Source: a virus
DNA length: 64,000 nucleotides
Reading direction: 5' to 3' (one strand)
Virus record (IMG/VR): IMGVR_UViG_3300047510_002509
The first letter of the stretch is position 1. Each line of letters begins with the position of its first letter. The position numbers and the translations under genes were made by a program. The notes beneath the pieces were generated by a model. That model was given only the letters and a program-made list of their open reading frames with translations. It searched no databases and was not told where the DNA came from. Below are positions 28,464 through 46,340 of this stretch, piece by piece.

Positions 28464-29881
28464 TTTTTAGGACTAAAAACTCGGCCTCCGCCACCTGCTC
28501 TAAAATTAGGCAACCTCCGTGAGGAAAAAGACTTGGCTACCAAGTTACCTCCAACAAATCCTGGTGGAGGTTTAATAAGGAGAGCAGTCATTGCGTGAAC
28601 TAAAGCATCCACTCTGTCTGGAGACTTTTTGGACTCTCCTGGAACCCAAGTTGTCATCTGAGATTCAAGATCAGGAAGATACCCAATATGATGAACACGT
28701 TGTTGTTCATATGCTAGAACGATGGGCTCGGCACGAAGGGCTTTACCGTGTTTTGAGTGCACTTCCAAAACTTTAACATTCGGGTCAATTGCATTAATTG
28801 CATTACGAACTAGTGCTCCACCTTGGTTTACTTCAGCAACAACTGGTGCTCCCCAACGGCGAGCCATCTCAACAACTTTATTTGCCCAGACTTCTGGTGA
28901 ACCAAGAACTGAAGCATCTTCTAATACCCAAGCGTGGCGCTTATATAAATCTCTATCTGCGGTAGAAGCACAAACAACAATCCCACATTCGTCACGAGGG
29001 TTTTCTGCAACAGATGGGTCTACCCCAATACAACGAAGCGGAGCTTGAGGGGGAAGAATTCCTTGTCTAGAACTTTCTATCATCTCCATTGTCCACAATG
29101 TTCCTTCAAGATCTTCAAGCATCTCTCCATAAAGCTCTTGTCGTGCAAGAGAGGTTCCTTCATAAACTCCCATAATGGTGTCTAGATATGTGCCAGATAA
29201 ATTTCCAGCGTTATCCATTGTTGAACCTCTAGTTACAATAACTTTTGAAAGGCTCTTTAAATTTTTTGATTCTTCAATTAATTTATAAAGAAGCGGAACT
29301 CTTTTAGGTGTAGTGGTGCAAACAATTTTTGGTTTTGCACCGAGACGTGTACCAACGCGCAAGTTATCAAAAGCTGTCATACCTGCAGCATCTGGAGTTT
29401 GACGCCATGCGGCAATCTCGTCACCCCATGCGTGTGTGAACTGCGGACCACGAAGAGAGTCTGGCTCATCTGCAGTAAACAATGTTGCAGTGTTTCCATT
29501 AGGCCAAGTTAGACGACGCTTTGATGGTTCATAGTGGGGGCGCTCGGATGGCGGGGAAACATTAATAATTCCCGACTCTCCTTCAACAATAACGTCACGA
29601 ACATCGGCAGCAGTACGAGCTACTAAAGCAAAGCGACGCTGGCCTTCATTTGTGTATTTAGCTTGCTCTCTTACCCACTCAGCTGCAAGTCTTGTTTTAC
29701 CAAAACCACGACCCGCAAGTACAAGCCAGATATTCCAGTCATCGCCTTCGGGAGGAAGTTGTTCAGGTCTTCCCCAAGAACGCCAATCCCATTGCAAAAT
29801 TTCTGGGTCTATATTGGAAAGAACTAATGCTTGCTCTTCTTTAGGTAAAAGGGCAAGCTGCTCCATAAAGCTCTTTCCCAT
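28460..29881 (-). CDS. terL: Terminase large subunit
   Basis: Walker A AGRGFGKT, LRGPQF, Walker B AWGDE, TTTP, nuclease motifs IGVDP and DRVDA. Confidence 0.9.
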   Translation of the reverse strand: MGKSFMEQLALLPKEEQALVLSNIDPEILQWDWRSWGRPEQLPPEGDDWNIWLVLAGRGFGKTRLAAEWVREQAKYTNEGQRRFALVARTAADVRDVIVEGESGIINVSPPSERPHYEPSKRRLTWPNGNTATLFTADEPDSLRGPQFTHAWGDEIAAWRQTPDAAGMTAFDNLRVGTRLGAKPKIVCTTTPKRVPLLYKLIEESKNLKSLSKVIVTRGSTMDNAGNLSGTYLDTIMGVYEGTSLARQELYGEMLEDLEGTLWTMEMIESSRQGILPPQAPLRCIGVDPSVAENPRDECGIVVCASTADRDLYKRHAWVLEDASVLGSPEVWANKVVEMARRWGAPVVAEVNQGGALVRNAINAIDPNVKVLEVHSKHGKALRAEPIVLAYEQQRVHHIGYLPDLESQMTTWVPGESKKSPDRVDALVHAMTALLIKPPPGFVGGNLVAKSFSSRRLPNFRAGGGGRVFSPKN

Positions 29882-29891
29882 AAATGACTAC

Positions 29892-30350
29892 CTATCTATT
29901 TCGCTGAAGACTTCTTTGAACTCCATAGTACAGCGGTGCAGCAGAACTTAGACCCAGTTGTTTGGCAAGATTAGAAAGAGAAATTCCAGCTTTGTATTCT
30001 TCTGCTAGCTGGTCGTGATACTTGTCAGTACCTTGTTCTTTTGCAGAACGTACTCTTTGAGCAGCTTGTAATACAACTTCGCCTTTAACACGCTTAGATG
30101 GTTTAATATTGGACACACTGATTTCATTCATAACTACACGACGGCGAACACCTGCATATGCAACATTTAGACGTTTAGCTAGAAGTGGCAAACTTCCCCC
30201 ACGGCCCCTAAATTCAACTAGTAAACGTGTGTACTCTCGGCTTGCATCGTGTGCTGGGCTATTTTGATTTCTTGCCCCATAAGCTTTCTTTGCATCATTA
30301 AGAATTGGTTGAATAAGCTGGGCGTACTGCTCAATAAGCTCGTTGCTCAT
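29892..30350 (-). CDS. Tandem helix-turn-helix protein (possible regulator or small terminase)
   Basis: Two HTH-like segments (SLPLLAKRLNV, SLSNLAKQLGL); directly upstream of terL. Confidence 0.55.
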   Translation of the reverse strand: MSNELIEQYAQLIQPILNDAKKAYGARNQNSPAHDASREYTRLLVEFRGRGGSLPLLAKRLNVAYAGVRRRVVMNEISVSNIKPSKRVKGEVVLQAAQRVRSAKEQGTDKYHDQLAEEYKAGISLSNLAKQLGLSSAAPLYYGVQRSLQRNR

Positions 30351-34065: not shown

Positions 34066-34749
34066 CTAAATGTCTAAAATGCTTTTCTCTTTTGAGTACA
34101 TCAAAAAAATGTGTCTTACGTTTGCTGCGTACCAGTCACTACCACCTCTTGGTGGAACAACACCATCACTCTTTAAACCTTCAGCAATTTTTCCGTACGA
34201 AAGTCCAGCTGTACGTTCGTCATAAATTCTTTTTCTAATTTCAAGAGGTAGTGGGGATTTTGGTCCAATATTAACCCCCCAAACCTTTCCAGCGTCTCTA
34301 CGGTCCTTATGGACATCTTTCTGACGCATAGAAATCATTCCACGCTCCATTTCAGCCATTGCTGACATGATGGTTACAACAAAACGTCCTTGATAAGTTC
34401 CTGTGTCCAATCCCAAATCAAGAAGTGCTAAACGCCATTCGTATTTATGTGAACGATCAACAATACTTAAAAAATCACGAGTGGAGCGTGCAAGCCTGTC
34501 TAAGCGTGTAACAAAAAGTGCTTGCGCCTTTCCTGCATCTAACTCATCTAATGCTTTTCGCAAAACAGGTCTACCAGTAATACTTTTACCAGACTTACCC
34601 TCTTCACGAAGAATTACAGCTACATAACCAGCAGACTCTGCAGCTGCAATTAGCTGACGCTCTTGTGCATCAAGTGACACGCCTTCCTCTGCTTGCATTT
34701 GAGTAGACACTCGCGCATAGCAGTAGGCAATACCCTCACTCATATCCAA
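34066..34749 (-). CDS. Serine recombinase (resolvase/invertase family) with short C-terminal DNA-binding domain
   Basis: YARVST catalytic motif, SGK, RLDRLARS, AEMER. Confidence 0.9.
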   Translation of the reverse strand: MDMSEGIAYCYARVSTQMQAEEGVSLDAQERQLIAAAESAGYVAVILREEGKSGKSITGRPVLRKALDELDAGKAQALFVTRLDRLARSTRDFLSIVDRSHKYEWRLALLDLGLDTGTYQGRFVVTIMSAMAEMERGMISMRQKDVHKDRRDAGKVWGVNIGPKSPLPLEIRKRIYDERTAGLSYGKIAEGLKSDGVVPPRGGSDWYAANVRHIFLMYSKEKSILDI

Positions 34750-35933: not shown

Positions 35934-36425
35934 TTAGCCTTTAGGTCTCATGACCACAAGGGCGCTGGGGAAGGGGGCTGCGTTGGTGGAATTACCAAAC
36001 TTCAGCCGTCCACGAATAAAACGAACTTCGTGGTGTATTGCATAGTCGTGAAACCAAGCAGTGTCAGTTCTTGCTGGCACTAGGCACACAACCGTGGCTC
36101 CTTTTTGAGATTCAGCGTCAGCCTTTCTCATCCAGTCCTTGATGGTCTTGCCATAAGGAGGATTGAGCCAAATAGCACCACCCTGAGCATCGGTAGTCCA
36201 GTCGCGTGTAAAAGCGTCTTGTCTATTCGTCTCTGGGTGGTCTGGTCCATACCAGTTGCCTACAACCAAAGTAGAAGACTGCAGGGCTGCTGCATCCAAA
36301 GCAAAGTTAAACTCTGCATCTACCTTGGCGTAATAACTTCTTGGCGTAGACCAAGTGTCATCAAGCGATGACATCGCTGTTGAGCTTGAATAAAAGCCCG
36401 TGCTCTTCTCGTAAGGTTCTACCAC
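35934..36425 (-). CDS. Phage Dam-family N6-adenine DNA methyltransferase
   Basis: W.TP, LDAAA, WLNPPYG, PARTDT, GRLKF; start moved to GTG 36425 because TATGAT lies 6 nt upstream. Confidence 0.88.
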   Translation of the reverse strand: MVEPYEKSTGFYSSSTAMSSLDDTWSTPRSYYAKVDAEFNFALDAAALQSSTLVVGNWYGPDHPETNRQDAFTRDWTTDAQGGAIWLNPPYGKTIKDWMRKADAESQKGATVVCLVPARTDTAWFHDYAIHHEVRFIRGRLKFGNSTNAAPFPSALVVMRPKG

Positions 36426-36498
36426 GCTGATATCATATAGTAACTTAATTCTAAATTGCAACACCCAAAACAGGCGTTTCTAAAAGGTATGATAAAGT

Positions 36499-36669
36499 TC
36501 AGGCCGTACGAACTCGCCCTTTTAGGACGTGCCAAGCGTTGCATTTATCGCATCCGTGTAAGAAATAGCTCTCTGGACGCCCTTTTTTGGTTTCCGAGTA
36601 GTTTTTCATCTGGACAAACCTACTAGCCAACTCTCGATTGGCAAAACCCTTTTTAACGCAAGTTGCCAT
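36499..36669 (-). CDS. Small hypothetical protein (56 aa, C..C..WH Zn-like)
   Basis: The ATG at 36669 directly follows the repeated GGGAGCCCGGAAA motif; MATCVKKGF... Confidence 0.65.
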   Translation of the reverse strand: MATCVKKGFANRELASRFVQMKNYSETKKGRPESYFLHGCDKCNAWHVLKGRVRTA

Positions 36670-36690
36670 TTTCCGGGCTCCCATTCCGTT
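36669..36690 (-). repeat. 22-bp dispersed motif, copy 1
   Basis: AACGGAATGGGAGCCCGGAAAA between a TAA and an ATG. Confidence 0.85.
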
Positions 36691-36826
36691 ATTTGAATCT
36701 GCGTCGAACATCGTTAGTGATAAGTCTGCCTTGGAACGTAGATAAGCGAGTAATAACCTTACTGATGAGGTCGATTAAATGACCCCTCCATGTCTGGGTC
36801 TTTTTGTGTCGTGACGTAGTTCTCAT
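36689..36826 (-). CDS. Small basic hypothetical protein (45 aa)
   Basis: Manual translation MRTTSRHKKTQTWRGH...RRRFK; bounded by two copies of the 22-bp motif. Confidence 0.55.
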   Translation of the reverse strand: MRTTSRHKKTQTWRGHLIDLISKVITRLSTFQGRLITNDVRRRFK

Positions 36827-36960
36827 TTTTCCGGGCTCCCGTTCCGTTCTGAGACCTTTGCGCAGTTGATGCAGATGTCGTAGTCCTTACCAGTGAAGGG
36901 ACAGGAGGACTGGGTGGTGAGTTGATGCTTACAGAAAAGTTGTTTGAGGAGATTAAGCAT
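36823..36960 (-). CDS. Small Cys/His protein (45 aa)
   Basis: Manual translation MLNLLKQLFCKH...CPFTG...CINC...; its TGA overlaps the next ATG. Confidence 0.6.
   Translation of the reverse strand: MLNLLKQLFCKHQLTTQSSCPFTGKDYDICINCAKVSERNGSPEK
36827..36848 (-). repeat. 22-bp dispersed motif, copy 2
   Basis: AACGGAACGGGAGCCCGGAAAA directly before ATG 36826. Confidence 0.85.
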
Positions 36961-37207
36961 CTACTTCCTCCAGTTCGGCTGTGAAGTCGGTGATTTCAAG
37001 GACATGGGTGGTTTCTCTGAGTTTAGGCTTGTCTCCATGCATGAAAGCCATATGCATGGATGAGCCTACCTCTGGGTAAGTCATATCTGTGCACTCAATC
37101 CATTGGAAAGCAGGGGCAATCGTATTCGGAGTGTCCTTGCCTATCTTGAGGAACCGCTTTGGGTAATCAACCAGATACACGCTGGTTTCGGTGCGAACTG
37201 TCAACAT
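36953..37207 (-). CDS. Hypothetical protein
   Basis: ORF track; own leaderless promoter. Confidence 0.7.
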   Translation of the reverse strand: MLTVRTETSVYLVDYPKRFLKIGKDTPNTIAPAFQWIECTDMTYPEVGSSMHMAFMHGDKPKLRETTHVLEITDFTAELEEVDA

Positions 37208-37213
37208 AATAAA

Positions 37214-37242
37214 AGACTAAGGGTTAACAGTTGCTGTGTCAA
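37214..37242 (-). promoter_or_regulatory. Sigma70-type leaderless promoter
   Basis: TTGACA-17 nt-TAGTCT-6 nt-ATG(37207). Confidence 0.8.
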
Positions 37243-37249
37243 ATACAAT

Positions 37250-37565
37250 AAAAAGGGGTTGGGGTGAAAACCTAGTACTCGCTTTCGCTTTCCCACCTGC
37301 GCTGCCCCAAGGCGTTACTCAGGTCGTCCCAAGCTTTCGCTCTGCAGGTTGGTTCTGTGGACTCTGCAGTAAAGGGTCTTAAAAGTGAGTAGGTGGACTG
37401 CTTTTTACCACCAAGGCCAAGCTATTACGGCTCTGTAGTACCGCTTTTAGGCCTACCAGACGTTCGGTCGCTAACCACTCTGCTAAGAGCCGCCTGTGCT
37501 TTACCCTCCCCATATAGCTTTGAGAGTGTTCAGCCATACTCCACGCAGCCCGTCGGCTTTGTGTT
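37250..37565 (-). ncRNA. Candidate large structured RNA: expanded tRNA-like domain (37544-37385) plus a second GAAA-capped domain (37380-37267)
   Basis: GC-rich gap with no credible ORF; -10 TAGGAT (37577-37572) not followed by a start codon; many manually paired helices; tRNA-like D arm, anticodon stem, T stem and acceptor pairing. Confidence 0.65.
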
Positions 37566-37624
37566 GAAAAAATCCTAACACATAAATCAGACATTTTGCT
37601 AACTTTATTTAGCAAAAATCCCAA

Positions 37625-37646
37625 TTTTCCGGGCTCCCATTCCCTT
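37625..37646 (-). repeat. 22-bp dispersed motif, copy 3
   Basis: AAGGGAATGGGAGCCCGGAAAA in the divergent intergenic region upstream of the candidate ncRNA. Confidence 0.8.
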
Positions 37647-37674
37647 TTTCTCCAAAGCAGCGTAGAGTAGGGGT

Positions 37675-37983
37675 ATGGAACTAAAAGAGTTTGTGATTAG
37701 GGATGAGGGTTGGGCTACCGACCTACAACAAGGGCTAGAGATGTACATGATGGCTCTATATGACTCTGTGGACGCTGAGGAGGGTACTCCTGAAGCTGAA
37801 ATAGAAACCGAAAGCGGTTTAATCTTCTGTGGGTGCCACACATGTGAAGCAAGAGAAATTCTAAGCTTTATCGTGCCACGAGCCATTAAAGGCTACTTAG
37901 ATGAAAAAGTTGGATTTGAAGATGCACCAGAGGGGTTTGTAGGTAAATTGGCTAAAGTGCCAAGCAACCTAAAACACGATTAA
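37675..37983 (+). CDS. Hypothetical protein (CGCHTC motif)
   Basis: ORF track; leaderless TAGAGT-6 nt-ATG. Confidence 0.7.
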   Translation: MELKEFVIRDEGWATDLQQGLEMYMMALYDSVDAEEGTPEAEIETESGLIFCGCHTCEAREILSFIVPRAIKGYLDEKVGFEDAPEGFVGKLAKVPSNLKHD

Positions 37984-38384
37984 GCAGCTTTTGATCTACG
38001 CTCTTTCAACAAATCAAAGTCTTTAATCTTGGTTTCACCCATGTAATCCCAAGCATAACCACCTGCAATAAGAGCATGGTTGACTGACTGTTCCGCATCA
38101 TCGAGGAACAACCAGCCAAGAATACGACCATACTTTTCAGTTGAGTCTGGCTTCTCAGTTTTAATAACAATCTTTTCGGCGCTCGCAAGAAGTTCGCCTA
38201 GCTTTTTCTTGACCTCAAGACCTAGTTGCTTTTCGTAAGCATCTTTAGTGCGAGACTCTGGGGTATCAATACCAGCAAGTCTTACTCGTTGAAAAAAGCT
38301 GACGTTAAAGCCCAAATCAATGTCGACATCTATTGTGTCCCCATCTACTACTTTATGAACTTTTTTAACTCGATAGGTATACAA
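37980..38384 (-). CDS. Thermonuclease (SNase) family protein
   Basis: VVDGDTID, RVRLAGIDTPE, KYGRILG. Confidence 0.9.
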   Translation of the reverse strand: MYTYRVKKVHKVVDGDTIDVDIDLGFNVSFFQRVRLAGIDTPESRTKDAYEKQLGLEVKKKLGELLASAEKIVIKTEKPDSTEKYGRILGWLFLDDAEQSVNHALIAGGYAWDYMGETKIKDFDLLKERRSKAA

Positions 38385-38963
38385 CTACTTAATGTCCTGT
38401 CCGCAAGCGTGGCAGACTTTCTTTTCTACTGTTGTTGCAGGAGCATCTGCCTTTACCCCAGCACCTTTAAATTTAGGGCGACCAAACCCAACGATTGAGA
38501 CCATTACTCCAGCCTTGTTCTTCTTATAAGCACGAAGCTGCTTGCAAACTTCTCCACCATTTCTTTGGCTTCCGCCCTTGCGATTTGTAGTGTTTCCTTC
38601 AATACACCAAACGGTCCCATCTTCATTGTCTTTAATAACAATTCCAACGTGACTAATGCGATCAACACCATCTGCCGGGAAATCAAAATAGGCAATATCT
38701 CCTGGCTCTGGGTCACAAATTTGTGCGTCATACCAACGATTAACTTTTTTAAATGCTGCTGCACCACTTGGAGTGTAAACAGTGTTAGGAATTTTTACTC
38801 CTGCTTGGTCTCCACACCAATTAACAAATGAACCGCACCATGGTTGAAAGTTAGCTCCAGACCACTTGCCATACTTTGTTTCGTTGTCTTTTGGACCTTC
38901 AATGGTTCCAAGCTCTGCTTTTGCAATCTCAATAAGACGAGCCGCTGTACCTTGCTCTGCCAT
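38385..38963 (-). CDS. CHAP-domain endolysin
   Basis: PWCGSFV, HVGIV, IEGNT. Confidence 0.88.
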   Translation of the reverse strand: MAEQGTAARLIEIAKAELGTIEGPKDNETKYGKWSGANFQPWCGSFVNWCGDQAGVKIPNTVYTPSGAAAFKKVNRWYDAQICDPEPGDIAYFDFPADGVDRISHVGIVIKDNEDGTVWCIEGNTTNRKGGSQRNGGEVCKQLRAYKKNKAGVMVSIVGFGRPKFKGAGVKADAPATTVEKKVCHACGQDIK

Positions 38964-39361
38964 TAGTCTTTATCCCATTCTTCATCGATTGGTTGTTCTT
39001 CAGGCATTTCGCCTTCTGGCTTTCCTGTTGTTGGGGCATCTTCAGTTGGTGTTGGGTCAACTGGTGCTGCTGTAGGAGCAGAGTCTTCTGGTGTGCCAAA
39101 ATCAATTGGTGCTGGTGAATCTCCACCTTTACTACCAATCAAAATACCTGCAAGAGTTCCTGTAATAAATGTTGCAATAGAACCTAGAACATTAAAAAAC
39201 ATTTTGTCGTTTTCTGACTGCTCACCGATTGGTTGAGTGACAAAAATAAGAGCATACAAAATACCCATAGCGGTAAAGAGAAGAATTAATCCTAGAATCA
39301 CGCCAAGAATAAATTTTAATCTAGCGTCTAAATCAGACGACGTATATCTAGCTCTACTCAT
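38963..39361 (-). CDS. Two-TM membrane protein, possible holin
   Basis: Two hydrophobic helices and an acidic tail; coupled to the endolysin gene. Confidence 0.6.
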   Translation of the reverse strand: MSRARYTSSDLDARLKFILGVILGLILLFTAMGILYALIFVTQPIGEQSENDKMFFNVLGSIATFITGTLAGILIGSKGGDSPAPIDFGTPEDSAPTAAPVDPTPTEDAPTTGKPEGEMPEEQPIDEEWDKD

Positions 39362-39566
39362 TTACAGCACCTTCTCCCTGATTAAAAATGTCTTCACCGA
39401 CCAAATCTACAGGACATGTGCCAGCCACAGAGCAGACTGGAGGCTTACATTCTTTGGTGTCCCAGTTATCTGGGTCTTGACATGGGTATCTATAGCCACC
39501 GTCATACCCACACCCCACTAAAGACAAAGCAAGAACAAGTGCTCCTGCAAATCGAGCAATCTTCAT
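39354..39566 (-). CDS. Small Cys-rich lipoprotein
   Basis: Lipobox LVG-C; four further Cys; SD GGAGG. Confidence 0.7.
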   Translation of the reverse strand: MKIARFAGALVLALSLVGCGYDGGYRYPCQDPDNWDTKECKPPVCSVAGTCPVDLVGEDIFNQGEGAVNE

Positions 39567-39653
39567 TTTTCCTCCACAGTCTGTTGTCCTAGACAGCGTC
39601 TATTATAAATTCACATGGAAAAAGTCATTTTTACTTATAAAAAAGAAAACCCC

Positions 39654-40073
39654 CTATTCGGGGGCTTTCTCTTGAATTAAAGGCAAAGGATCAACGTCCT
39701 TATTTCCGTATCGCCATGGGGAGATACGAGCCTCTAGGTGAAGGTGGGGACCAGAACTGTTTCCAGTATTACCTGACAAACCAATAACTTGTCCTTCTTC
39801 CACCTTGTTGCCTTTTTTCACACTTGTCTTGCTTAAGTGTGCGTAGACTGCCCGTACACCTTTGCCATGGTCAATGACCACAGCGGTGCCGTAGGAAGGC
39901 CCCCAAGTAACACTTGGACCAGCCTCTAGTACTTTGCCCTTCTTAACTGCAGAGACTTCAGTCCCCGCTGGGCACGCATAGTCAACTCCCCCGTGGTAGC
40001 CAATTTTCCACATCTTGCCTGGCTTTTTGTAAGGAGTCGTGATTTTGAATTTCTTCGGTAGTGGAGAACCCAC
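39654..40073 (-). CDS. M23 family metallopeptidase
   Basis: HGGVD, YAHL, GPHLH. Confidence 0.9.
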   Translation of the reverse strand: MGSPLPKKFKITTPYKKPGKMWKIGYHGGVDYACPAGTEVSAVKKGKVLEAGPSVTWGPSYGTAVVIDHGKGVRAVYAHLSKTSVKKGNKVEEGQVIGLSGNTGNSSGPHLHLEARISPWRYGNKDVDPLPLIQEKAPE

Positions 40074-40123
40074 TATTCCTCCCGATTGTTGTTCCTATCT
40101 TCATATTATCCTCTGTCAAAAGG

Positions 40124-40164
40124 AAAGCGACTGGGTCGTTTATTATTGACCCAGCCGCTTTTTT
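40124..40164. terminator. Intrinsic terminator-like hairpin
   Basis: AAAGCGACTGGGTC-loop-GACCCAGCCGCTTTTTTT; U-rich tails in both directions. Confidence 0.6.
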
Positions 40165-40251
40165 TCCTTCTTGTCGGGTAAGGAAACTTATTTGTGAATA
40201 TTTTAAGGGTATTTCTAGTCTTTTATATTAAAAAGGTGTAAGTTAAGACTT

Positions 40252-40983
40252 ATGGGAAATGCTCCGATTGAGATAAAGTTTTTAGACATTGTAGGCGACT
40301 TGCCTGAAGAGACTAAGCCATACCCTGCCAAAAAGAACATTCCAAATTGGTATAAAAGTCTTCCTTCTTATATAGATGGTGAACAAGGACAAGTTTATTG
40401 GAATGATGTAGGTATTAATCAAGGTACAGCGACTGGTAAAAAATGTATGCCTATGTTGGATGCTATGACTGCTGGATACATAATTCCCCTACCCACAGAT
40501 ATAAAAGTTTCAAGACAAAATGGTCAGCAGCTGTTTCAATGGCCTGACCACGAAGTGTTGGGGTTTCATCCACCTCTTCAAATGACAACGCACCCGCATG
40601 TTGAAAAAAATTCAAATAACTCAATACCTAAATTTCACTCTCCTTGGACAATAGTTACTCCTCCTGGATATTCTGTTCTCTGTATTGCTCCGCTTAATAG
40701 AGACTCAGAACATAAAATTCTTGAGGCAATCCCTGGGGTTGTAGACACTGACACATACAACCACCCAATTAACTTTCCTTTTTTAATAGACCCGAATTGG
40801 ACTGGAATAATCCCTGCTGGATATCCAATGGTTCAAGTAATACCTTTTAAAAGAGAGTCTTTTAAAATGGAGTTTGGTGGCAGAGAAGAATATCTGAAAA
40901 TGCAGAAAAGCTTTAGAAGACTAAAAATGAGCTTTTACAATGGATATAAAGACCGATTTTGGTCACGCAAGGAATACAACTAA
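40252..40983 (+). CDS. Hypothetical protein (DUF6065-like), paralog of 53932..54636
   Basis: P.WYK, KKCMPMLDAMTAGY, TPPGYS, GVVDTD, QVIPFKRE. Confidence 0.65.
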   Translation: MGNAPIEIKFLDIVGDLPEETKPYPAKKNIPNWYKSLPSYIDGEQGQVYWNDVGINQGTATGKKCMPMLDAMTAGYIIPLPTDIKVSRQNGQQLFQWPDHEVLGFHPPLQMTTHPHVEKNSNNSIPKFHSPWTIVTPPGYSVLCIAPLNRDSEHKILEAIPGVVDTDTYNHPINFPFLIDPNWTGIIPAGYPMVQVIPFKRESFKMEFGGREEYLKMQKSFRRLKMSFYNGYKDRFWSRKEYN

Positions 40984-41079
40984 ACGACGCTTAATTGGGT
41001 CAAACTTCTTTGGACGCTTTTTAAAAGCCTTTCCACACTTACGACTGTCGTTTGTAATTCTTGCTGTTTTTGCAGCCAT
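40963..41079 (-). CDS. Small basic protein (38 aa)
   Basis: Manual translation MAAKTARITNDSRKCGKAFKKRPKKFDPIKRRLVVFLA; SD TAAGGAG. Confidence 0.5.
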   Translation of the reverse strand: MAAKTARITNDSRKCGKAFKKRPKKFDPIKRRLVVFLA

Positions 41080-41087
41080 GATGCTCC

Positions 41088-41696
41088 TTACGCTATATCG
41101 TCACTAAGACGTGTAGTTTCGTCATCTTTCACCTTAGCACCTGGCTCCCACAATATGTCTCCAGAAGTTCTGTTTTCATATCTTGCTAGAACAAAGAGCA
41201 AATCTGACAACCTATTAAGGTATTTAGCAGTCATAAGATTTATGCTTCCCCAATGCTCTTCGGCAGCTTTCCAAGTTGCTCGCTCTGCTCTGCGAACTAC
41301 GGTTCTGGCTACATGAAGATCAGCTGATGCTTTAGTTCCAGATGGAAGAACAAATGAACGAAGTGGTTCAAGATTGAAGTTAATTTTATCTATCCACTTT
41401 TCTAGGTACTCAACTTGTTCCTCTGTAATACGAAGTGGGGTTGTTTTTGAGTCCTCTACTACAGGAGTCGATAAGTCTGCTCCAACATCAAACAAGTGAT
41501 TTTGTATATTACGCATAACTGACATTAACCTGCTGCTAACCATAGAAGACATAGCAACGCCAATAAATGAGTTTGCTTCATCTACTGTTGCGTAAGCTTC
41601 AATACGAGAGTCTGTCTTGGGAACCCTACTAAGGTCTCCAAGAGAGGTTGTCCCCTCGTCTCCAGTCTTTGTATAAATGCGAGTTAGATTTACCAT
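41088..41696 (-). CDS. pduO: ATP:cob(I)alamin adenosyltransferase (PduO type)
   Basis: IYTKTGDEGTT, YATVDEANS, IQNHLFDVGADL, FVLP, RRAER, YLNRLSD; start at ATG 41696 (TAATG overlap). Confidence 0.93.
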   Translation of the reverse strand: MVNLTRIYTKTGDEGTTSLGDLSRVPKTDSRIEAYATVDEANSFIGVAMSSMVSSRLMSVMRNIQNHLFDVGADLSTPVVEDSKTTPLRITEEQVEYLEKWIDKINFNLEPLRSFVLPSGTKASADLHVARTVVRRAERATWKAAEEHWGSINLMTAKYLNRLSDLLFVLARYENRTSGDILWEPGAKVKDDETTRLSDDIA

Positions 41697-41842
41697 TAGT
41701 GTCCTGTCAGCGAGCGCCAAATTTGAAGAGTTATCAGATGTGATAAATAAAGTGCAGCCGCATTAAATGCAATGTTTGCAATAACATTCAGCCAAGGACT
41801 GACTTTTGTCTGCACTTCTAACTTCTCTTCAAGAAGAATCAC
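41696..41842 (-). CDS. Small single-TM protein (48 aa)
   Basis: Manual translation MILLEEKLEVQTKVSPWLNVIANIAFNAAALYLSHLITLQIWRSLTGH; overlaps both neighbours. Confidence 0.6.
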   Translation of the reverse strand: MILLEEKLEVQTKVSPWLNVIANIAFNAAALYLSHLITLQIWRSLTGH

Positions 41843-42300
41843 GGGAATGGAACCTCTCCATTATCTGCAAATACAAGTCCAAGAGATTCACCTGGATGTA
41901 GGTGCACTTGGTCTATCCCTGTTTGAGCCCACCCCCACTCACCCTGTAAATCAAAAGGCCAAGGAATGATTTCGTTTTCTTTTACTAAGACTGCCCAATA
42001 CGACTCTGCTGGTGGCATATCCGTGCAAGACTCTACTGATGCATCAGGGAACCCACCAAGACGACAGAGCACTGCGCTGCCATACTTTAGAGTTCCCTCG
42101 GTTGATAGATTAACACTGCTAAGAAGGTCCAATGCCATGACATCACCTGTGACTGGCACGCATTGCTCTACAACCGCCCCATTATTTAGCGGTCCATAAT
42201 CAATATATAAATTTACGCAATCTGCTTTTGCCTGTTGAGTAAAAGCCAGTATTCCTAGAGCCGAGACAATTAAAACAAATCCTGCTATTAACTTTTTCAC
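41839..42300 (-). CDS. Secreted protein, possibly DUF4430/transcobalamin-C-like cobalamin-binding domain
   Basis: Signal peptide; LCRLGGFP...YWAV...W.WAQTGIDQVHL.PGES.G pattern; in an operon with pduO. Confidence 0.5.
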   Translation of the reverse strand: MKKLIAGFVLIVSALGILAFTQQAKADCVNLYIDYGPLNNGAVVEQCVPVTGDVMALDLLSSVNLSTEGTLKYGSAVLCRLGGFPDASVESCTDMPPAESYWAVLVKENEIIPWPFDLQGEWGWAQTGIDQVHLHPGESLGLVFADNGEVPFP

Positions 42301-42354
42301 TATGCCTTTCTTTAGTGTTTCTTATTCTTTACACTAACGTACTTAATGTATAAA

Positions 42355-42576
42355 TTAAGAAACATTATCTATAGGTTTCCAAAGGTATTGACCATCCATA
42401 AAAGGGTTAAGTTCGCTTGAGCCCTGATAAACCTGATTGGTTTCTCTATCTATTAAAAGCCATTTCTCTGGACATTTTGTTGTAATTGAAAGAGTGATTG
42501 CTTCTGGAAGTGTAGGAGCAGTGAAACTTCCCCAAGCCTGTGCTATAGACCCGCTTTGGATGTCTCTGTAGTTCAC
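42355..42576 (-). CDS. Hypothetical protein
   Basis: ORF track; the GTG directly follows motif copy 4. Confidence 0.65.
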   Translation of the reverse strand: MNYRDIQSGSIAQAWGSFTAPTLPEAITLSITTKCPEKWLLIDRETNQVYQGSSELNPFMDGQYLWKPIDNVS

Positions 42577-42598
42577 TTTTCCGGGCTCCCTTTCCGTT
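42577..42598 (-). repeat. 22-bp dispersed motif, copy 4
   Basis: AACGGAAAGGGAGCCCGGAAAA between a TAA and GTG 42576. Confidence 0.85.
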
Positions 42599-43046
42599 AA
42601 CTTCTTCGGACGCGCTCTATAAGTTCTGTAGAGGAGAAGTTGTGTTTGCGACTATTGTAGTAAATCTCTATGTTGTGAGTTATACAGTAGTCCCTACCTG
42701 TGAAGTCTTTACCTATGTAGTCTTCCCCGATAATTCGAACATCTATGGGCAATGTCTTAAGTAAGTTGAGCAAGTCTTCTTCAGTCTCATAAATGACAAT
42801 CTCATCTACATACTTAACTGCTTTCAGCTGCAACTGACGCTCAATTAAAGACTGTATAGGTTTGCGCTTTTCTGGTCTATCAAGACTTGGGTCTGTTTGA
42901 AGAGCGACTATAAGATGATCGCATGCGGACTTTGCCTCTTCAAGCATGAGAATGTGACCTGCGTGTAGGAGGTCAAAACAAGAAGCGGTAAAACCAACTT
43001 TGTTGTGTTTGAACATACGCTCTAGTTCGAGTAGTGCTGATTCCAT
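42597..43046 (-). CDS. Cytidylyltransferase (TagD/RfaE-like)
   Basis: FDLLHAGH, ER..QL.AVKYVDE, GEDY, SST. Confidence 0.88.
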   Translation of the reverse strand: MESALLELERMFKHNKVGFTASCFDLLHAGHILMLEEAKSACDHLIVALQTDPSLDRPEKRKPIQSLIERQLQLKAVKYVDEIVIYETEEDLLNLLKTLPIDVRIIGEDYIGKDFTGRDYCITHNIEIYYNSRKHNFSSTELIERVRRS

Positions 43047-43790
43047 TTAATCCTCCAACACTGCTTCTTTAATTTTGCGAAGGACTATGTCTTTTGTTCT
43101 AGATTTAGTAAAGGTTTCATATCTATAAGCTAAAGACTTAAACTTCCCAAAACTGTTCTTTGTGTCAGCAACGCTTTCTGCTAGCTTGTAGATTTCATGA
43201 GTCATTTCAAATCGTTTTAGGTTGACCTTTTTGTCAGTTATAAAACGTGCATATAAAACTGGCTCTTCTGCTAAATGAAACCTGTTTACACCCTTCCGTA
43301 GAATCATTTCAACTAAGCAAGGTCTAAACCACTTTGAGATGTTGAACCTACCTGGTGTAATACTTCCGTAATTCTGGTGGATTGTGTCGTGAAGTATTGG
43401 AGGCATTATCTCCATCTCGAGGTCTTCTTCAGAGAAGAACACCCAACCTAATGGCATCCAAATAACTTTCCTATCTTCCATAAAAGTTTCCATTGTTCTA
43501 GATAAGACAATTTGATGCTCTTGAAGAGGAACAAACTTTTGTAAAACAGGGTCAAACTCAAACTTGCTATCTACAACATTTGAAAAGACATAGGTGTTAG
43601 AAAACATGTTTTTATATGCTGGGCAAAAGAAAATACTATTATTTGGGTCAGCGTCTTCTTTTTTAAACTTCTTTAGAGACTGAGAAACTGGCTCTGGATC
43701 GTGGTACATCATGTTCCAGTCATACCGCTCTTCTGGTCTAATTGGGTAGAATGGAGACCAGTAAACAGTAACTTCGTCTTTGCGTGCCAT
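43047..43790 (-). CDS. Hypothetical protein, possibly distantly related to 40252..40983
   Basis: ORF track; FFCPA, PGRFNISKWFR; leaderless TATGAT-6 nt-ATG. Confidence 0.65.
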   Translation of the reverse strand: MARKDEVTVYWSPFYPIRPEERYDWNMMYHDPEPVSQSLKKFKKEDADPNNSIFFCPAYKNMFSNTYVFSNVVDSKFEFDPVLQKFVPLQEHQIVLSRTMETFMEDRKVIWMPLGWVFFSEEDLEMEIMPPILHDTIHQNYGSITPGRFNISKWFRPCLVEMILRKGVNRFHLAEEPVLYARFITDKKVNLKRFEMTHEIYKLAESVADTKNSFGKFKSLAYRYETFTKSRTKDIVLRKIKEAVLED

Positions 43791-43815
43791 GTATTTATCA
43801 TAGTAGAGATTTCAA

Positions 43816-43837
43816 TTTTCCGGGCTCTCTTTCCGTT
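43816..43837 (-). repeat. 22-bp dispersed motif, copy 5
   Basis: AACGGAAAGAGAGCCCGGAAAA overlapping the -35 position of the leaderless promoter for 43790. Confidence 0.8.
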
Positions 43838-45269: not shown

Positions 45270-45518
45270 CTATTTGCTTTTATTCTCTTTTGATTTTGGT
45301 TTAAATTTAGTCAGCCAAGATTTGTCAGAGTATTTAACCCACTCATACACAAAGATACACCCAGCGATTAGAAGCCCGAGTGAAAGCGACTGCACGATGT
45401 AGTAAGTGCTTGGGTCAATAAGGTATGTGTCCCAAGGGAAGGTATAAGCGACTACTGGAAATGCAATTACATTTCCAAATACAACTGAGATTACGATGCT
45501 TTTATATACGTTTGTCAT
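45270..45518 (-). CDS. Two-TM membrane protein
   Basis: Two hydrophobic helices; SD AAAGGA. Confidence 0.65.
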   Translation of the reverse strand: MTNVYKSIVISVVFGNVIAFPVVAYTFPWDTYLIDPSTYYIVQSLSLGLLIAGCIFVYEWVKYSDKSWLTKFKPKSKENKSK

Positions 45519-45554
45519 TATGTCCTTTCTAATTATTCTTTTATTGTATCGAAT

Positions 45555-46340
45555 TTAATTATTAGTTTCAACAATCCGAGTGTACTTAATTCCACTGCCA
45601 CCATTGTCTTTAGCCCAGCCGCTGATAGAGCGTATTTCGGTTCTATCTCCTGGCTTACCGCCAGCATGAATCATCTCATCGGGGCCTACATAGATTCCAA
45701 TATGGTAGGCGCTTCCGTAGCTTTTGTGGTTGAAGGACACTAAGTCGCCAATTTTTGGCTCCGTGACAAACTCACCTGAGATTCTTTGCTTTGTTGCACT
45801 ATGTTCTAGGTCAATACCGAGGTGGGCGTATGTCCAGCGAACAAGCCCTGAGCAATCCCAAGACCTTGTAGTGGAGCCAGCAAATACCCAAGGGGTTATG
45901 CCAATTTGATTTTTTACTAAGACAAGAGTCTCGTTTAGGGTTTTAGTGTTTTTGGCTATTTCTTCTAGCCTAGCAATTTCTGCTTCTAGTTCGGCTTGCA
46001 CTTTTGCAGCCTCTGCCTCGATGGCAGCTTGCTTACGCTCTGCGTCAGATTTGAGTTTATCTTTTGCAGCTTTTTCCTGAGCCATCCAATCTAAGGAACC
46101 AACTAGTGGTGCATCCGAGCTAAATATGGGTCCAGCTTGGAGGACTTGTTTTTGTACAGGACCAGAAATAACAGTCTCTCTTTGTACAGGAGAGTTAATA
46201 GTTGGAGATAGTTTTGTTACTTGTCCTGAGATTACTTTGCTGTTAGCTGAGCGATCTACATCCGCTGTGGCCTCCGCGAAAGCAATCGTGGAGCTTGTCG
46301 TAATTAATCCAATAGCAATTACTAATAGAAGCTTTTTCAT
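45555..46340 (-). CDS. Secreted NlpC/P60 peptidoglycan endopeptidase with coiled coil
   Basis: Signal peptide; WDCSGLV, HIGIYVG, MIHA. Confidence 0.9.
   Translation of the reverse strand: MKKLLLVIAIGLITTSSTIAFAEATADVDRSANSKVISGQVTKLSPTINSPVQRETVISGPVQKQVLQAGPIFSSDAPLVGSLDWMAQEKAAKDKLKSDAERKQAAIEAEAAKVQAELEAEIARLEEIAKNTKTLNETLVLVKNQIGITPWVFAGSTTRSWDCSGLVRWTYAHLGIDLEHSATKQRISGEFVTEPKIGDLVSFNHKSYGSAYHIGIYVGPDEMIHAGGKPGDRTEIRSISGWAKDNGGSGIKYTRIVETNN

Follow-up and report, generated by a model that had tools for sequence, protein, structure and literature searches.

An asymmetric, co-oriented repeat at gene starts and putative promoters in an uncultured freshwater actinophage

Described phage repeats and how this one compares

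The operator/stoperator sites of Cluster A phages are bound by gp71, the immunity repressor of the temperate phage L5, and number 20-30, distributed genome-wide; the sites of the T4 RegA protein are short, AU-rich and poorly conserved. Stoperators are mentioned in the paper that describes the start-associated sequence (SAS) of Cluster K, GGGATAGGAGCCC, for which no more than two deviations are allowed and which lies 3-9 bp upstream of the start of the downstream gene (Pope et al. 2011, PMC3203893). Follow-up studies of SAS and extended SAS (ESAS) are available (PMC11373665, PMC12699233); Cluster K carries 11-19 copies of this 13-bp word, and an ESAS promoter with a 17-bp inverted repeat is found upstream of SAS (PMC3203893, PMC11373665, PMC12699233). 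The promoter-early stem-loop (PeSL) cassettes of T4-type phages join an early promoter of the sigma-70 type to a stem-loop terminator, and their recombination yields mini-circles (Arbiol et al. 2010, PMC2839356; Comeau et al. 2014, PMC4122927).

The motif described here is a repeat of 22-31 bases, present in six copies, all on the minus strand, in the 136,029-bp genome of an uncultured freshwater phage of actinobacteria. Of the named phages, Actinomycetia phage DSL-LC01 and large Microbacterium phages are its nearest relatives. The 60 non-redundant copies from this genome and its relatives fall into two classes: in 27 (class I) a start codon adjoins the motif, at offset 0 or -1, and has GGGAG 8-9 nt before it; the other 33 (class II) have no adjoining start. 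The resemblance to SAS pointed out in a preliminary description of this DNA is real, the core GGAATGGGAGCCC agreeing with the Cluster K sequence at 11 of 13 positions. Like SAS, the motif is asymmetric, keeps one orientation, occupies the non-structural part of an actinobacteriophage genome and, in class I, stands a few bases before the starts of unrelated genes; it includes the Shine-Dalgarno sequence (SD), its conservation goes past the SD to GCCC, and the upstream stop codon is often inside the repeat. Five copies fall in the window (the whole 64,000-nucleotide stretch analysed), of which copies 1 and 3 (GGAATGGGAGCCC) lie within two deviations of SAS and the other three have three deviations, against 0.68 matches expected by chance per window. 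The 3-9 bp distance is found in 27 of the 60 copies (6-7 nt from CCC to start), but not in 33, including copies 3 and 5.

However, the motif is longer than the 13-bp SAS, as it takes in the spacer, start codon and T-run, and the genome has six copies, against 11-19 in Cluster K. Roughly half of the copies in the family are start-less and lie at the -35 position of putative promoters, whereas the Cluster K promoter lies upstream of SAS, and the inverted repeat of ESAS has no counterpart here. The carrier also differs, being an unrelated 136-kb uncultured freshwater phage and not a temperate siphovirus of about 60 kb.

The motif shares with Cluster A sites its asymmetry and its co-orientation with transcription, as well as a division into one class over the promoter -35 (here by geometry) and another in very short stop/start gaps. 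Unlike stoperators, which are not phased, its class I copies are phased to start codons, and neither a recognised repressor nor a clear temperate lifestyle is seen in this phage. The low number of sites, six in all, and their clustering in 7 kb with one outlier count against a stoperator-like operator reading. As with PeSLs, a small regulatory cassette is repeated within a hyperplastic accessory region and is found at the edges of stretches that close relatives have gained, lost or replaced, and in some relatives the copy would combine with a terminator hairpin and a putative promoter element into one composite. What is conserved here differs from PeSLs in being no hairpin and no canonical promoter; in half of the copies it is a ribosome-binding linker. 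The likeness to T4 RegA operators lies in the many early genes with a site over the translation start, where a phage protein could read the mRNA; a RegA-type reading, however, leaves copies outside transcripts unexplained.

Conservation and sequence contexts of the repeat

The five minus-strand copies that the preliminary description had listed are all present at the coordinates given, with 0-1 mismatch, where 0 are expected by chance and none were found in 100 shuffles of the window. A position matrix built from relatives only, with this genome left out, picked out six sites in all across the 136,029-bp genome, scoring 38-46 bits, while all others scored at most 12 bits and shuffle maxima remained below 8. 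The claim that the window holds no further copy stands, as the sixth site falls outside it. Five of the six are packed in 7.2 kb, with one outlier, and five of the six sit among nucleotide-metabolism, lysis and accessory genes. Neither the position nor the orientation of the motif is random genome-wide: all six copies are co-oriented, as are those of every relative, and the motif is kept in at least 10 related uncultured phage contigs with 2-7 copies each. The clade consists of low-GC freshwater actinophages, in which the motif is located in the accessory-gene region.

The full consensus of about 31 bp reads TAACGGAA-N-GGGAGCCCGGAAAA, followed by WTG-RN-TTTY, and the conserved span extends from about -22 to +9 relative to the start. 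GCCCGRAAAA shows no variation in copies of either class, and positions 14-17 (CCCG) are identical in all of 41 copies. The tetramer CCGG, kept by every copy, is avoided 6.6-fold genome-wide (25 observed, 165 expected), and six of the 25 genomic occurrences fall in the motif. Sequence inspection and folding revealed neither dyad symmetry nor a hairpin in the motif, and RNA folding of its contexts gave no structure signal (class I mean z +0.4 relative to shuffled sequence). The motif is under strong purifying selection.

Class I copies precede about 12 unrelated protein families and form the entire intercistronic linker, comprising the upstream stop, GGGAG as the Shine-Dalgarno sequence, an A-rich spacer and the start codon, in stop-to-start gaps of 19-20 nt. 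In the window, copy 1 (36669..36690, minus strand, 40.9 bits) starts a gene for a 56-aa Cys/His-rich, zinc-ribbon-like protein (36499..36669, minus strand); the final A of the motif is the first base of the ATG, and the TAA of the upstream gene for a very basic 45-aa protein (36689..36826, minus strand, between copies 2 and 1) overlaps the first bases of the motif. A Pfam search with the 56-aa protein gave no match; homologues of its gene follow a motif copy in relatives G001-G003 and belong to the same small-gene cluster in relative L181. Copy 2 (36827..36848, minus strand) abuts the ATG of the basic gene and sits within the 3' end of a 45-aa CxxC gene (36823..36960, minus strand), whose last codons it provides (tail RNGSPEK and stop, with an ATGA stop/start overlap). 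Copy 4 (42577..42598, minus strand) lies between the TAA of a cytidylyltransferase-like gene (42597..43046, minus strand), which has motif copies on both sides in more distant relatives, and the GTG of a 73-aa gene (42355..42576, minus strand), whose start is fixed by orthologues that begin MNYR. These three copies abut ATG, ATG and GTG with GGGAG 8-9 nt upstream, and copies 1 and 4 occupy the entire gap between stop and start, since the upstream TAA is made up of the preceding base and the first two A's of the motif.

The other two window copies are class II. Copy 3 (37625..37646, minus strand) and copy 5 (43816..43837, minus strand; SD-like part relaxed to GAGAG) lie between divergent genes and, in agreement with the first description, are followed by TTG and carry AAAGCAGCG on the plus-strand flank. 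This TTG is not kept in relatives, which have TCC, TCA or TAG instead. In divergent regions just 28-55 nt separate the motif from the start of the opposite gene, copy 3 being 28 nt from the plus-strand gene at 37675-37983. The candidate non-coding RNA proposed downstream of copy 3 corresponds to a probable manA RNA motif (RF01745; 37382..37561, minus strand), matched over the full model length near threshold (52.6 bits against a gathering cutoff of 55.2, E 1.3e-12). The sixth site (genome positions 116309-116330, minus strand) is antisense within a plus-strand gene of 123 aa and cannot be a translation start. GAG is lost from seven of 33 class II copies and from none of 27 class I copies (counted by eye).

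In many class II copies a putative -10 box, TANNNT, follows the motif at a distance of 13-14 nt and serves a leaderless gene; hexamers of this form at +9 to +15 were hit 19 times in class II and twice in class I (60 copies). The arrangement motif-N13/14-TANNNT-N6-ATG is kept at two loci in the genome holding the window and in G001-G004, while the 13-14 nt spacer diverges. At the counterpart of copy 3 in these four relatives, N14, then TAGCCT or TAGTCT, then N6 stand between the motif and the ATG of the CxxC gene. After copy 5, a -10-like box with a leaderless start (43788..43802, minus strand) consists of TATGAT at 43802-43797, 6 nt and the ATG at 43790 of a 247-aa gene; CTATGATAAAnACATGGC is conserved downstream of this copy in G001, G002 and G004, and the 13 nt before it vary. 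With 13 nt between copy 5 and TATGAT, GCCCGG falls at the expected position of a -35 hexamer, and from this geometry box and ATG together would form a putative promoter. By the same geometry, the class II motif would overlie the -35 region of putative promoters composed of no more than a -10 box and a leaderless start; a consensus scan found no sigma-70 -35/-10 pair at the motif. In G002, L162, L170 and L181 a GC hairpin and T-run directly precede a copy; the window copies have no preceding terminator hairpin.

Cassettes bounded by the repeat

Co-oriented direct repeats of the motif bound insertions, deletions and replacements of gene cassettes. The suggestion that cassettes are exchanged at the motif is borne out by specific cases, although the statistics are modest. 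Copy 4 is missing from G001 and G002 as a clean indel of 19-21 bp, while G004 has it. G002 has a 3.8-kb insert with a motif copy on each side, and the crossover maps inside an identical 14-nt core. Between copies 2 and 1, the basic 45-aa gene stands in this genome where G001-G004 have an unrelated 262-aa gene. A 663-bp segment with the manA match is absent from G001. Cassette edges are not always exact, running 17 nt upstream of copy 1 and, for the manA segment, starting 11 nt downstream of copy 3. Homology breakpoints occur at three of five motifs in comparisons of this genome with G001 and with G002 (P about 0.01), but enrichment at the motif was not significant in five of seven genome pairs.

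Competing explanations and candidate readers

On the best reading, which is tentative with a probability of about 0.42, the motif would be the core of a cis-regulatory repeat that is specific to this lineage, marks where expression units of the accessory region have their 5' ends and is read as DNA by a phage factor, besides providing a ribosome-binding site and a joint for recombination. Since GCCCGRAAAA and CGGAA persist at sites that can have no part in translation, it is most likely the DNA that is recognised, by a single sequence-specific reader. This would be a regulator that the phage encodes, with the motif an operator or activator site at promoters and perhaps a roadblock between genes, as at Cluster A operator/stoperator sites; class I copies would in addition employ their embedded GGGAG and start codon in translation. 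The shuffling of cassettes would then follow incidentally as co-oriented copies recombine, in the manner of T4-type PeSLs.

A translation role explains more directly the exact start phasing, the 30S-like span and the near-identity to SAS. In its pure form this alternative makes the motif an SAS-type element acting as RNA, an extended initiation region that the ribosome would recognise jointly with a factor of host or phage (an activator, or a repressor as with T4 RegA), with class II copies lying in 5' UTRs or being decaying relics. We regard it as unlikely, even though nearly half of the copies (27 of 60) are exactly start-phased with the SD intact, the span from about -22 to +9 equals a 30S footprint, the match and spacing to SAS are close, class I contexts are not more structured than shuffled sequence, and GGAG-type SDs and A-rich spacers before ATG are ordinary in other genes of the phage. 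Against it, 33 of 60 copies are start-less and several of them have lost GAG with the remaining motif invariant, some copies lie between a terminator T-run and a -10 box and would be transcribed from neither side, the distance to the opposite start in divergent regions is very short, and the sixth site is antisense inside a gene.

Also unlikely is a passive standard part that nothing dedicated reads, a good ribosome-binding linker that has spread and stays uniform as copies and co-infecting relatives exchange sequence by recombination and gene conversion. Concerted evolution, along with the ordinary needs of SD, spacer and start, would then account for its conservation. The gain, loss and replacement of cassettes, the crossover within the core in G002 and the generality of A-rich spacers agree with this. 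However, CCCG is invariant between genomes whose genes share only about 70% identity and whose intergenic bases beside the motif are free to vary, CCGG is retained despite its genome-wide avoidance, copies that are start-less with a broken SD keep the remaining motif, and a preferred distance to the -10 box is not expected.

Decidedly doubtful is a further proposal, in which the 31-bp word carries two codes: at the DNA level an operator or -35 substitute read by a phage WhiB-type factor (a WhiB domain fused to a zinc ribbon and basic tail) bound to the host sigma factor, and at the RNA level a complete ribosome docking site. If true, a gene recombined behind a copy would acquire transcriptional and translational control together, and from the closeness of the core to the Cluster K SAS it would follow that SAS-type words are read by something common to actinobacteria and phages, not a Cluster K speciality.

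Very unlikely is a phage-specific promoter, used by an RNA polymerase or sigma-like factor of the phage that has escaped recognition; transcripts would begin at the motif or just behind it, giving leaderless class I mRNAs and 25-nt leaders in class II. The motif is long, invariant and co-oriented like T7-type promoters, it is found in divergent regions that need promoters, and the phage encodes several giant proteins without known function; but transcripts starting after the motif would leave GGGAG outside the RNA and hence its better preservation in class I unexplained, class II copies have host-type -10 boxes of their own at a fixed distance, and a search of the phage for sigma region 2 gave no match (one for a T7-type polymerase was also empty, but as its controls were silent too it is uninformative). 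Strand-specific nicking is known from T5 and phiKMV-like phages. Least probable of all is a site for a DNA-acting enzyme of this kind or for a site-specific recombinase, integron-like or the nearby small resolvase-type serine recombinase (34066-34749), since arrays of small ORFs parted by a direct repeat, one insert between two copies as after circle integration, and the confinement of all copies to one strand, whatever the orientation of some local genes, are set against a motif lacking dyad symmetry and hairpin, inexact cassette edges, start-codon phasing that is left unexplained, and the equal presence of the recombinase in motif-less DSL-LC01.

Among the proteins of the phage, no reader of the motif was identified. 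The HTH protein (29892-30350), which has no Pfam or PHROG match, is likewise conserved in DSL-LC01, so neither it nor the recombinase tracks the motif; the gene-content comparison with that phage had no resolving power for finding the reader. The gene for the basic 45-aa protein is absent from G001 (83% complete), which has the motif. No repressor or integrase is evident, and the phage may be strictly lytic. It encodes two WhiB-type regulators with basic or zinc-ribbon tails, and these, together with small zinc-ribbon proteins, would be candidate readers.

Six co-oriented copies in an actinophage genome

The window spans positions 29687-93686 of an IMG/VR virus record that is 136,029 bp long and was rated as 100% complete. 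Searching it for AACGGAANGGGAGCCCGGAAAA with up to three mismatches returned exactly five minus-strand sites (copy 1, 36669-36690; copy 2, 36827-36848; copy 3, 37625-37646; copy 4, 42577-42598; copy 5, 43816-43837), the same five listed in the preliminary description, and the pattern had no match in 100 dinucleotide-preserving shuffles. A fuzzy search of the whole genome added one site with three mismatches, also on the minus strand (genome 116309-116330). In a whole-genome scan with a position matrix of 31-bp instances taken solely from other genomes, these six sites scored 38-46 bits, no other site exceeded 12 bits, and shuffled genomes stayed below 8 bits. The set is thus sharply bounded, with all six copies on one strand, in agreement with the earlier impression that the window holds no further copy and that the motif is oriented.

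The phage primase/helicase shares 63% identity with that of Actinomycetia phage DSL-LC01, a lake metagenome-assembled genome of 54% GC, and about 50% with those of large Microbacterium phages. Also encoded are two proteins of the WhiB type, which is confined to actinobacteria and their phages. Around the motif are genes for ThyX, a Dam-type methylase, a nuclease, CHAP and M23 peptidases, a small serine recombinase and sugar-modifying enzymes, along with many small ORFs. These relatives and gene content point to a low-GC (44%) actinophage of freshwater type, with the motif in its accessory region. Phage records contained no nucleotide match to the phage, and its proteins had no match to sigma region 2; a search for a T7-type polymerase was also negative, but its controls were silent too, so that it says little. 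A 473-aa gene (window 28460-29881, minus strand) has a PHROGs match to terminase large-subunit families (E 1e-23). The adjoining 152-aa gene (29892-30350), previously taken to encode an HTH protein, matched no family and is kept in all relatives, including DSL-LC01, which lacks the motif.

An exact IMG/VR scan with the 14-nt core gave 76 loci, of which some 20 have the complete motif. Whole-record searches of nine related uncultured phage contigs gave 4, 5, 5, 5, 2, 5, 7, 3 and 6 copies, all on one strand within any one contig, and zero matches for a reversed-pattern control; conservation in relatives, which the preliminary description had left to be checked, therefore takes the form of 2-7 co-oriented copies per contig. 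Further members, with as many as 7 copies, came from a scan of metagenomes. The motif-bearing contigs (GC 43-48%) are members of one phage family, with structural and replication proteins that are 50-95% identical, and the more distant DSL-LC01, the nearest named phage, has no copy. A host origin was rejected, since 185,579 genomes, one per prokaryotic species, yielded 23 single matches in unrelated taxa and none in Actinobacteria, about the number expected by chance according to our own estimate.

Two classes of copies under layered constraint

Copies 1, 2 and 4 carry GGGAG 8-9 nt upstream of a start codon, as first described, and copies 4 and 1 fill the whole gap between a TAA and the next start. 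Copy 4 (TAA-CGGAAAGGGAGCCCGGAAAA-GTG, minus strand) leads from the end of a cytidylyltransferase-like gene to the start of a 73-aa gene whose orthologues begin MNYR, and copy 1 in the same manner connects a 45-aa very basic gene, ending in TAA, with a 56-aa Cys/His-rich gene that starts with ATG. Copy 2 lies within the last codons of a 45-aa CxxC gene, encoding its tail RNGSPEK, and abuts the start of the basic gene, with stop and next ATG overlapping as ATGA. Other genes of the phage are preceded by ordinary GGAG-type ribosome-binding sites with A-rich spacers. Two further start-proximal words were observed on the plus strand: ACGACGAAAGG, 8-15 nt upstream of the ATG in at least four consecutive genes outside the window (genome 99.4-105.5 kb), and GGGTAAAAA, immediately 5' of the starts of other genes in a listing of upstream regions.

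Copies 3 and 5 lie, as had been noted, in divergent intergenic regions. Copy 5 is followed by 13 variable bases, TATGAT, 6 bases and the ATG of a 247-aa gene without a ribosome-binding site, an arrangement that reads as a -10 box with a leaderless start. Leaderless starts behind a -10 box are common in actinobacteria. Between copy 3 and a TAGGAT -10 box (37577-37572) there is a perfect palindrome, TTGCTAA-ATAAAG-TTAGCAA (37596-37615, minus strand), which looks like an operator overlapping a -35. This -10 box precedes the stretch formerly described as a candidate ncRNA (37382-37561, minus strand), which aligns with the full length of the Rfam manA RNA motif (RF01745) at 52.6 bits (E 1.3e-12), below the gathering score of 55.2; no Rfam family matched the window at gathering score. 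A tblastn match of a spurious 81-aa ORF indicates what seems to be a homologue in the relative G009. The manA RNAs, which are candidate riboswitches, have been described chiefly in cyanophages and marine metagenomes (PMC2864571), and one in an actinophage would therefore be unusual.

Of 60 non-redundant copies, 27 border a start codon (class I; offset 0 or -1, ORF of at least 35 aa), a count that takes in copies 3 and 6 of this phage although their downstream ORFs were judged non-coding, and the other 33 have no adjacent start (class II). The start-abutting copies stand before about 12 unrelated protein families. After class II motifs TANNNT has 19 matches at +9 to +15, compared with 16 in the next 30 positions and 2 for class I. 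The arrangement motif-N13/14-TANNNT-N6-ATG is kept at two orthologous loci in this phage and the relatives G001-G004 with differing spacer bases, and GCCCGG, the least variable part of the motif, falls at the position of a -35 hexamer if the spacer is 17 bp. In several relatives a GC hairpin and T-run end directly at the motif, producing a composite of terminator, motif and -10 box. Three other readings were rejected: class I copies as promoters, as they lack TANNNT at the class II distance; an ECF-type promoter (GGAAC-N17/18-GTT), as only about one class II copy in three has the G and conservation peaks within the supposed spacer; and a mini-ORF behind class II copies (TTG AAA TCT CTA CTA TGA), as there is no ORF conservation and TCC or TCA replaces TTG in relatives.

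Constraint on the motif is layered. GAG at positions 11-13 is lost in 7/33 class II copies (as GGGAC, GTGAC, GAGAC, GGAAG or GGGCG) and 0/27 class I copies, counted by eye, and the Shine-Dalgarno part is thus needed only where a start follows. CGGAA and GCCCGRAAAA are retained everywhere. The information profile shows a weaker 3' extension in both classes, WTG-RN-TTTY, which in class I constrains the second and third codons (MDF, MTF, MIS and similar). Between relatives the intergenic bases beside the motif diverge freely and its 3' half is identical. Of all 4-bp palindromes, CCGG is avoided most strongly in this genome, with 25 sites observed against 165 expected under a second-order model (6.6-fold under), and 6 of these 25 are motif copies. 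GATC is also 3.2-fold under-represented (126 against 409 expected), even though the phage encodes a Dam-type methylase (35934-36464), and the scarcity of both words suggests host restriction pressure.

The sixth copy, with a ATGACTTTT extension, is antisense to codons 15-22 of a plus-strand gene (123 aa) that lies a short way upstream of the head genes, and is conserved in G003 and G004 with 2-3 changes. It was rejected as a gene start because the ORF behind it differs in length among three genomes (48, 21 and 33 aa) and substitutions follow the codon phase of the plus-strand genes. An antisense start would be one possible role, and a binding site at the late-operon entry another.

Candidate readers and comparison with known systems

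The analysis establishes six bounded sites, their conservation and co-orientation in relatives, two contexts, layered constraint and cassette events. Because copies that are start-less, flanked by a terminator and -10 box, or antisense within a gene keep the non-Shine-Dalgarno positions, one reader acting on DNA would be the most economical explanation, a reading to which we assign a probability of roughly 0.4. In class I copies the same word would double as a ribosome-binding linker, fixing their phase. Judged by position, candidate readers would include the WhiB-type proteins of the phage, encoded outside the window at genome 23762-24307 (+) and 22764-23048 (+) (L159 and L160), and the small CxxC and zinc-ribbon-like proteins encoded beside copies. 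The site of action of WhiB-type proteins is sigma-A region 4, close to the -35. In the 181-aa WhiB-type protein a WhiB domain is fused to a CxxC...CxxC zinc ribbon and a lysine-rich tail; the second protein carries a basic tail. Among motif-bearing phages the zinc-ribbon half of the 181-aa protein is nearly identical, and it is diverged in DSL-LC01, but the case from co-occurrence was rejected, as this divergence is no greater than the overall 57% identity predicts. The same case for the 45-aa basic protein failed because it is absent from the 83%-complete G001. Gene content compared with DSL-LC01 excluded no reader usefully, since the whole accessory region differs.

The motif resembles the start-associated sequence (SAS) of Cluster K mycobacteriophages. 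SAS (GGGATAGGAGCCC) stands 3-9 bp upstream of the starts of 11-19 non-structural genes in one orientation, is conserved beyond the ribosome-binding site and has been unexplained since 2011 (PMC3203893), its role still being called ill-defined or undefined in papers of 2024 and 2025 (PMC11373665, PMC12699233). The window copies read GGAA(T/C/A)GGGAGCCC, and the likeness noted in the preliminary description amounts to 11/13 positions in copies 1 and 3, the only two matches in the window under the published two-mismatch rule. The core is almost identical (GGA..GGAGCCC), the CCC-to-start distance is 6-7 nt in copies that abut a start, and 7/9 positions outside the shared GGAG agree, with a chance of about 1e-3 by our own binomial estimate. 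Unlike SAS, the motif has a longer word, a start-less promoter class and no inverted repeat of the extended type (ESAS), and it belongs to an unrelated phage. No RNA structure was found on folding 60 copies (mean z +0.4 and -0.5). An independent phage lineage with different hosts carries a nearly SAS-identical core. Compared with Cluster K, its start-less copies reveal positions kept for reasons other than ribosome binding and stand at fixed geometry to -10 boxes, and the word is intact despite strong genome-wide CCGG avoidance. Together these three handles make directly testable whether DNA or RNA is read, and by which reader. A purely RNA-level role of SAS type is considerably less probable than a reader acting on DNA, a passive standard part is slightly less probable again, and a phage-specific promoter, an enzyme site and unlisted readings share the remaining probability. 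Cluster A operators and stoperators are similar in their two contexts (promoter -35 and short intergenic gaps) and co-orientation, but differ in that the motif sites are few and strictly phased to starts.

Cassette exchange at the motif

The proposal that the motif serves as a junction for cassette exchange was borne out at several loci. At the copy 4 locus the two orthologous genes of G001 and G002 meet in a direct stop/start junction (GGGTTGAAATGA), where this phage and G004 carry the motif as a clean 19-21 bp indel. Relative to G001, G002 has a 3.8-kb insertion of four genes and a terminator with one motif copy on each side; the left copy is the resident 5' variant and the right copy another, which places the crossover inside the 14-nt core that both share. 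In the interval from copy 2 to copy 1, G001-G004 have an unrelated 262-aa gene in place of the 45-aa basic gene; on the left the exchanged segment ends at the motif, and on the right it stops 17 nt short of the next one. A further 663 bp absent from G001 begin 11 nt after copy 3, and the cytidylyltransferase gene has the motif on both sides in more distant relatives, downstream only in this phage and on neither side in G001. Alignment blocks with G001 or G002 end within 25 nt of 3/5 motifs (P about 0.01, the two comparisons being non-independent), and the enrichment was not significant in five other genome pairs. The motif is thus a recurrent junction, not the sole one, and the crossovers look like recombination between repeats, unlike exact site-specific cuts. 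The promoter-early stem-loop cassettes (PeSLs) of T4-type phages offer a parallel, both in acting as cassette junctions and, for several relatives, in the composites of terminator and promoter elements (PMC2839356, PMC4122927). The motif provides an actinophage case of a regulatory repeat as a cassette plug-in point, best described so far in T4-type phages.

Three further observations concern relatives. The block at window 45318-45999, with a 261-aa gene, is inverted and relocated in G001-G003 (L104:14424-15088 in G001), where it lies beside the 56-aa zinc-ribbon-like gene, so that the accessory region also has a rearrangement that is not motif-bounded. In a metagenome relative (L165:7156) a motif-like word, ATGGGAAAGAGAGCCCGGAAAA, is itself coding: a homologue of the 45-aa basic protein takes its N-terminal residues MGKRARK from it. 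G005, G006 and G007 share TTGTACG-N-CGTACAAT behind the final cassette in the motif arrays, which is a hairpin and also a TTGTAC-N17-TACAAT promoter-like pair.
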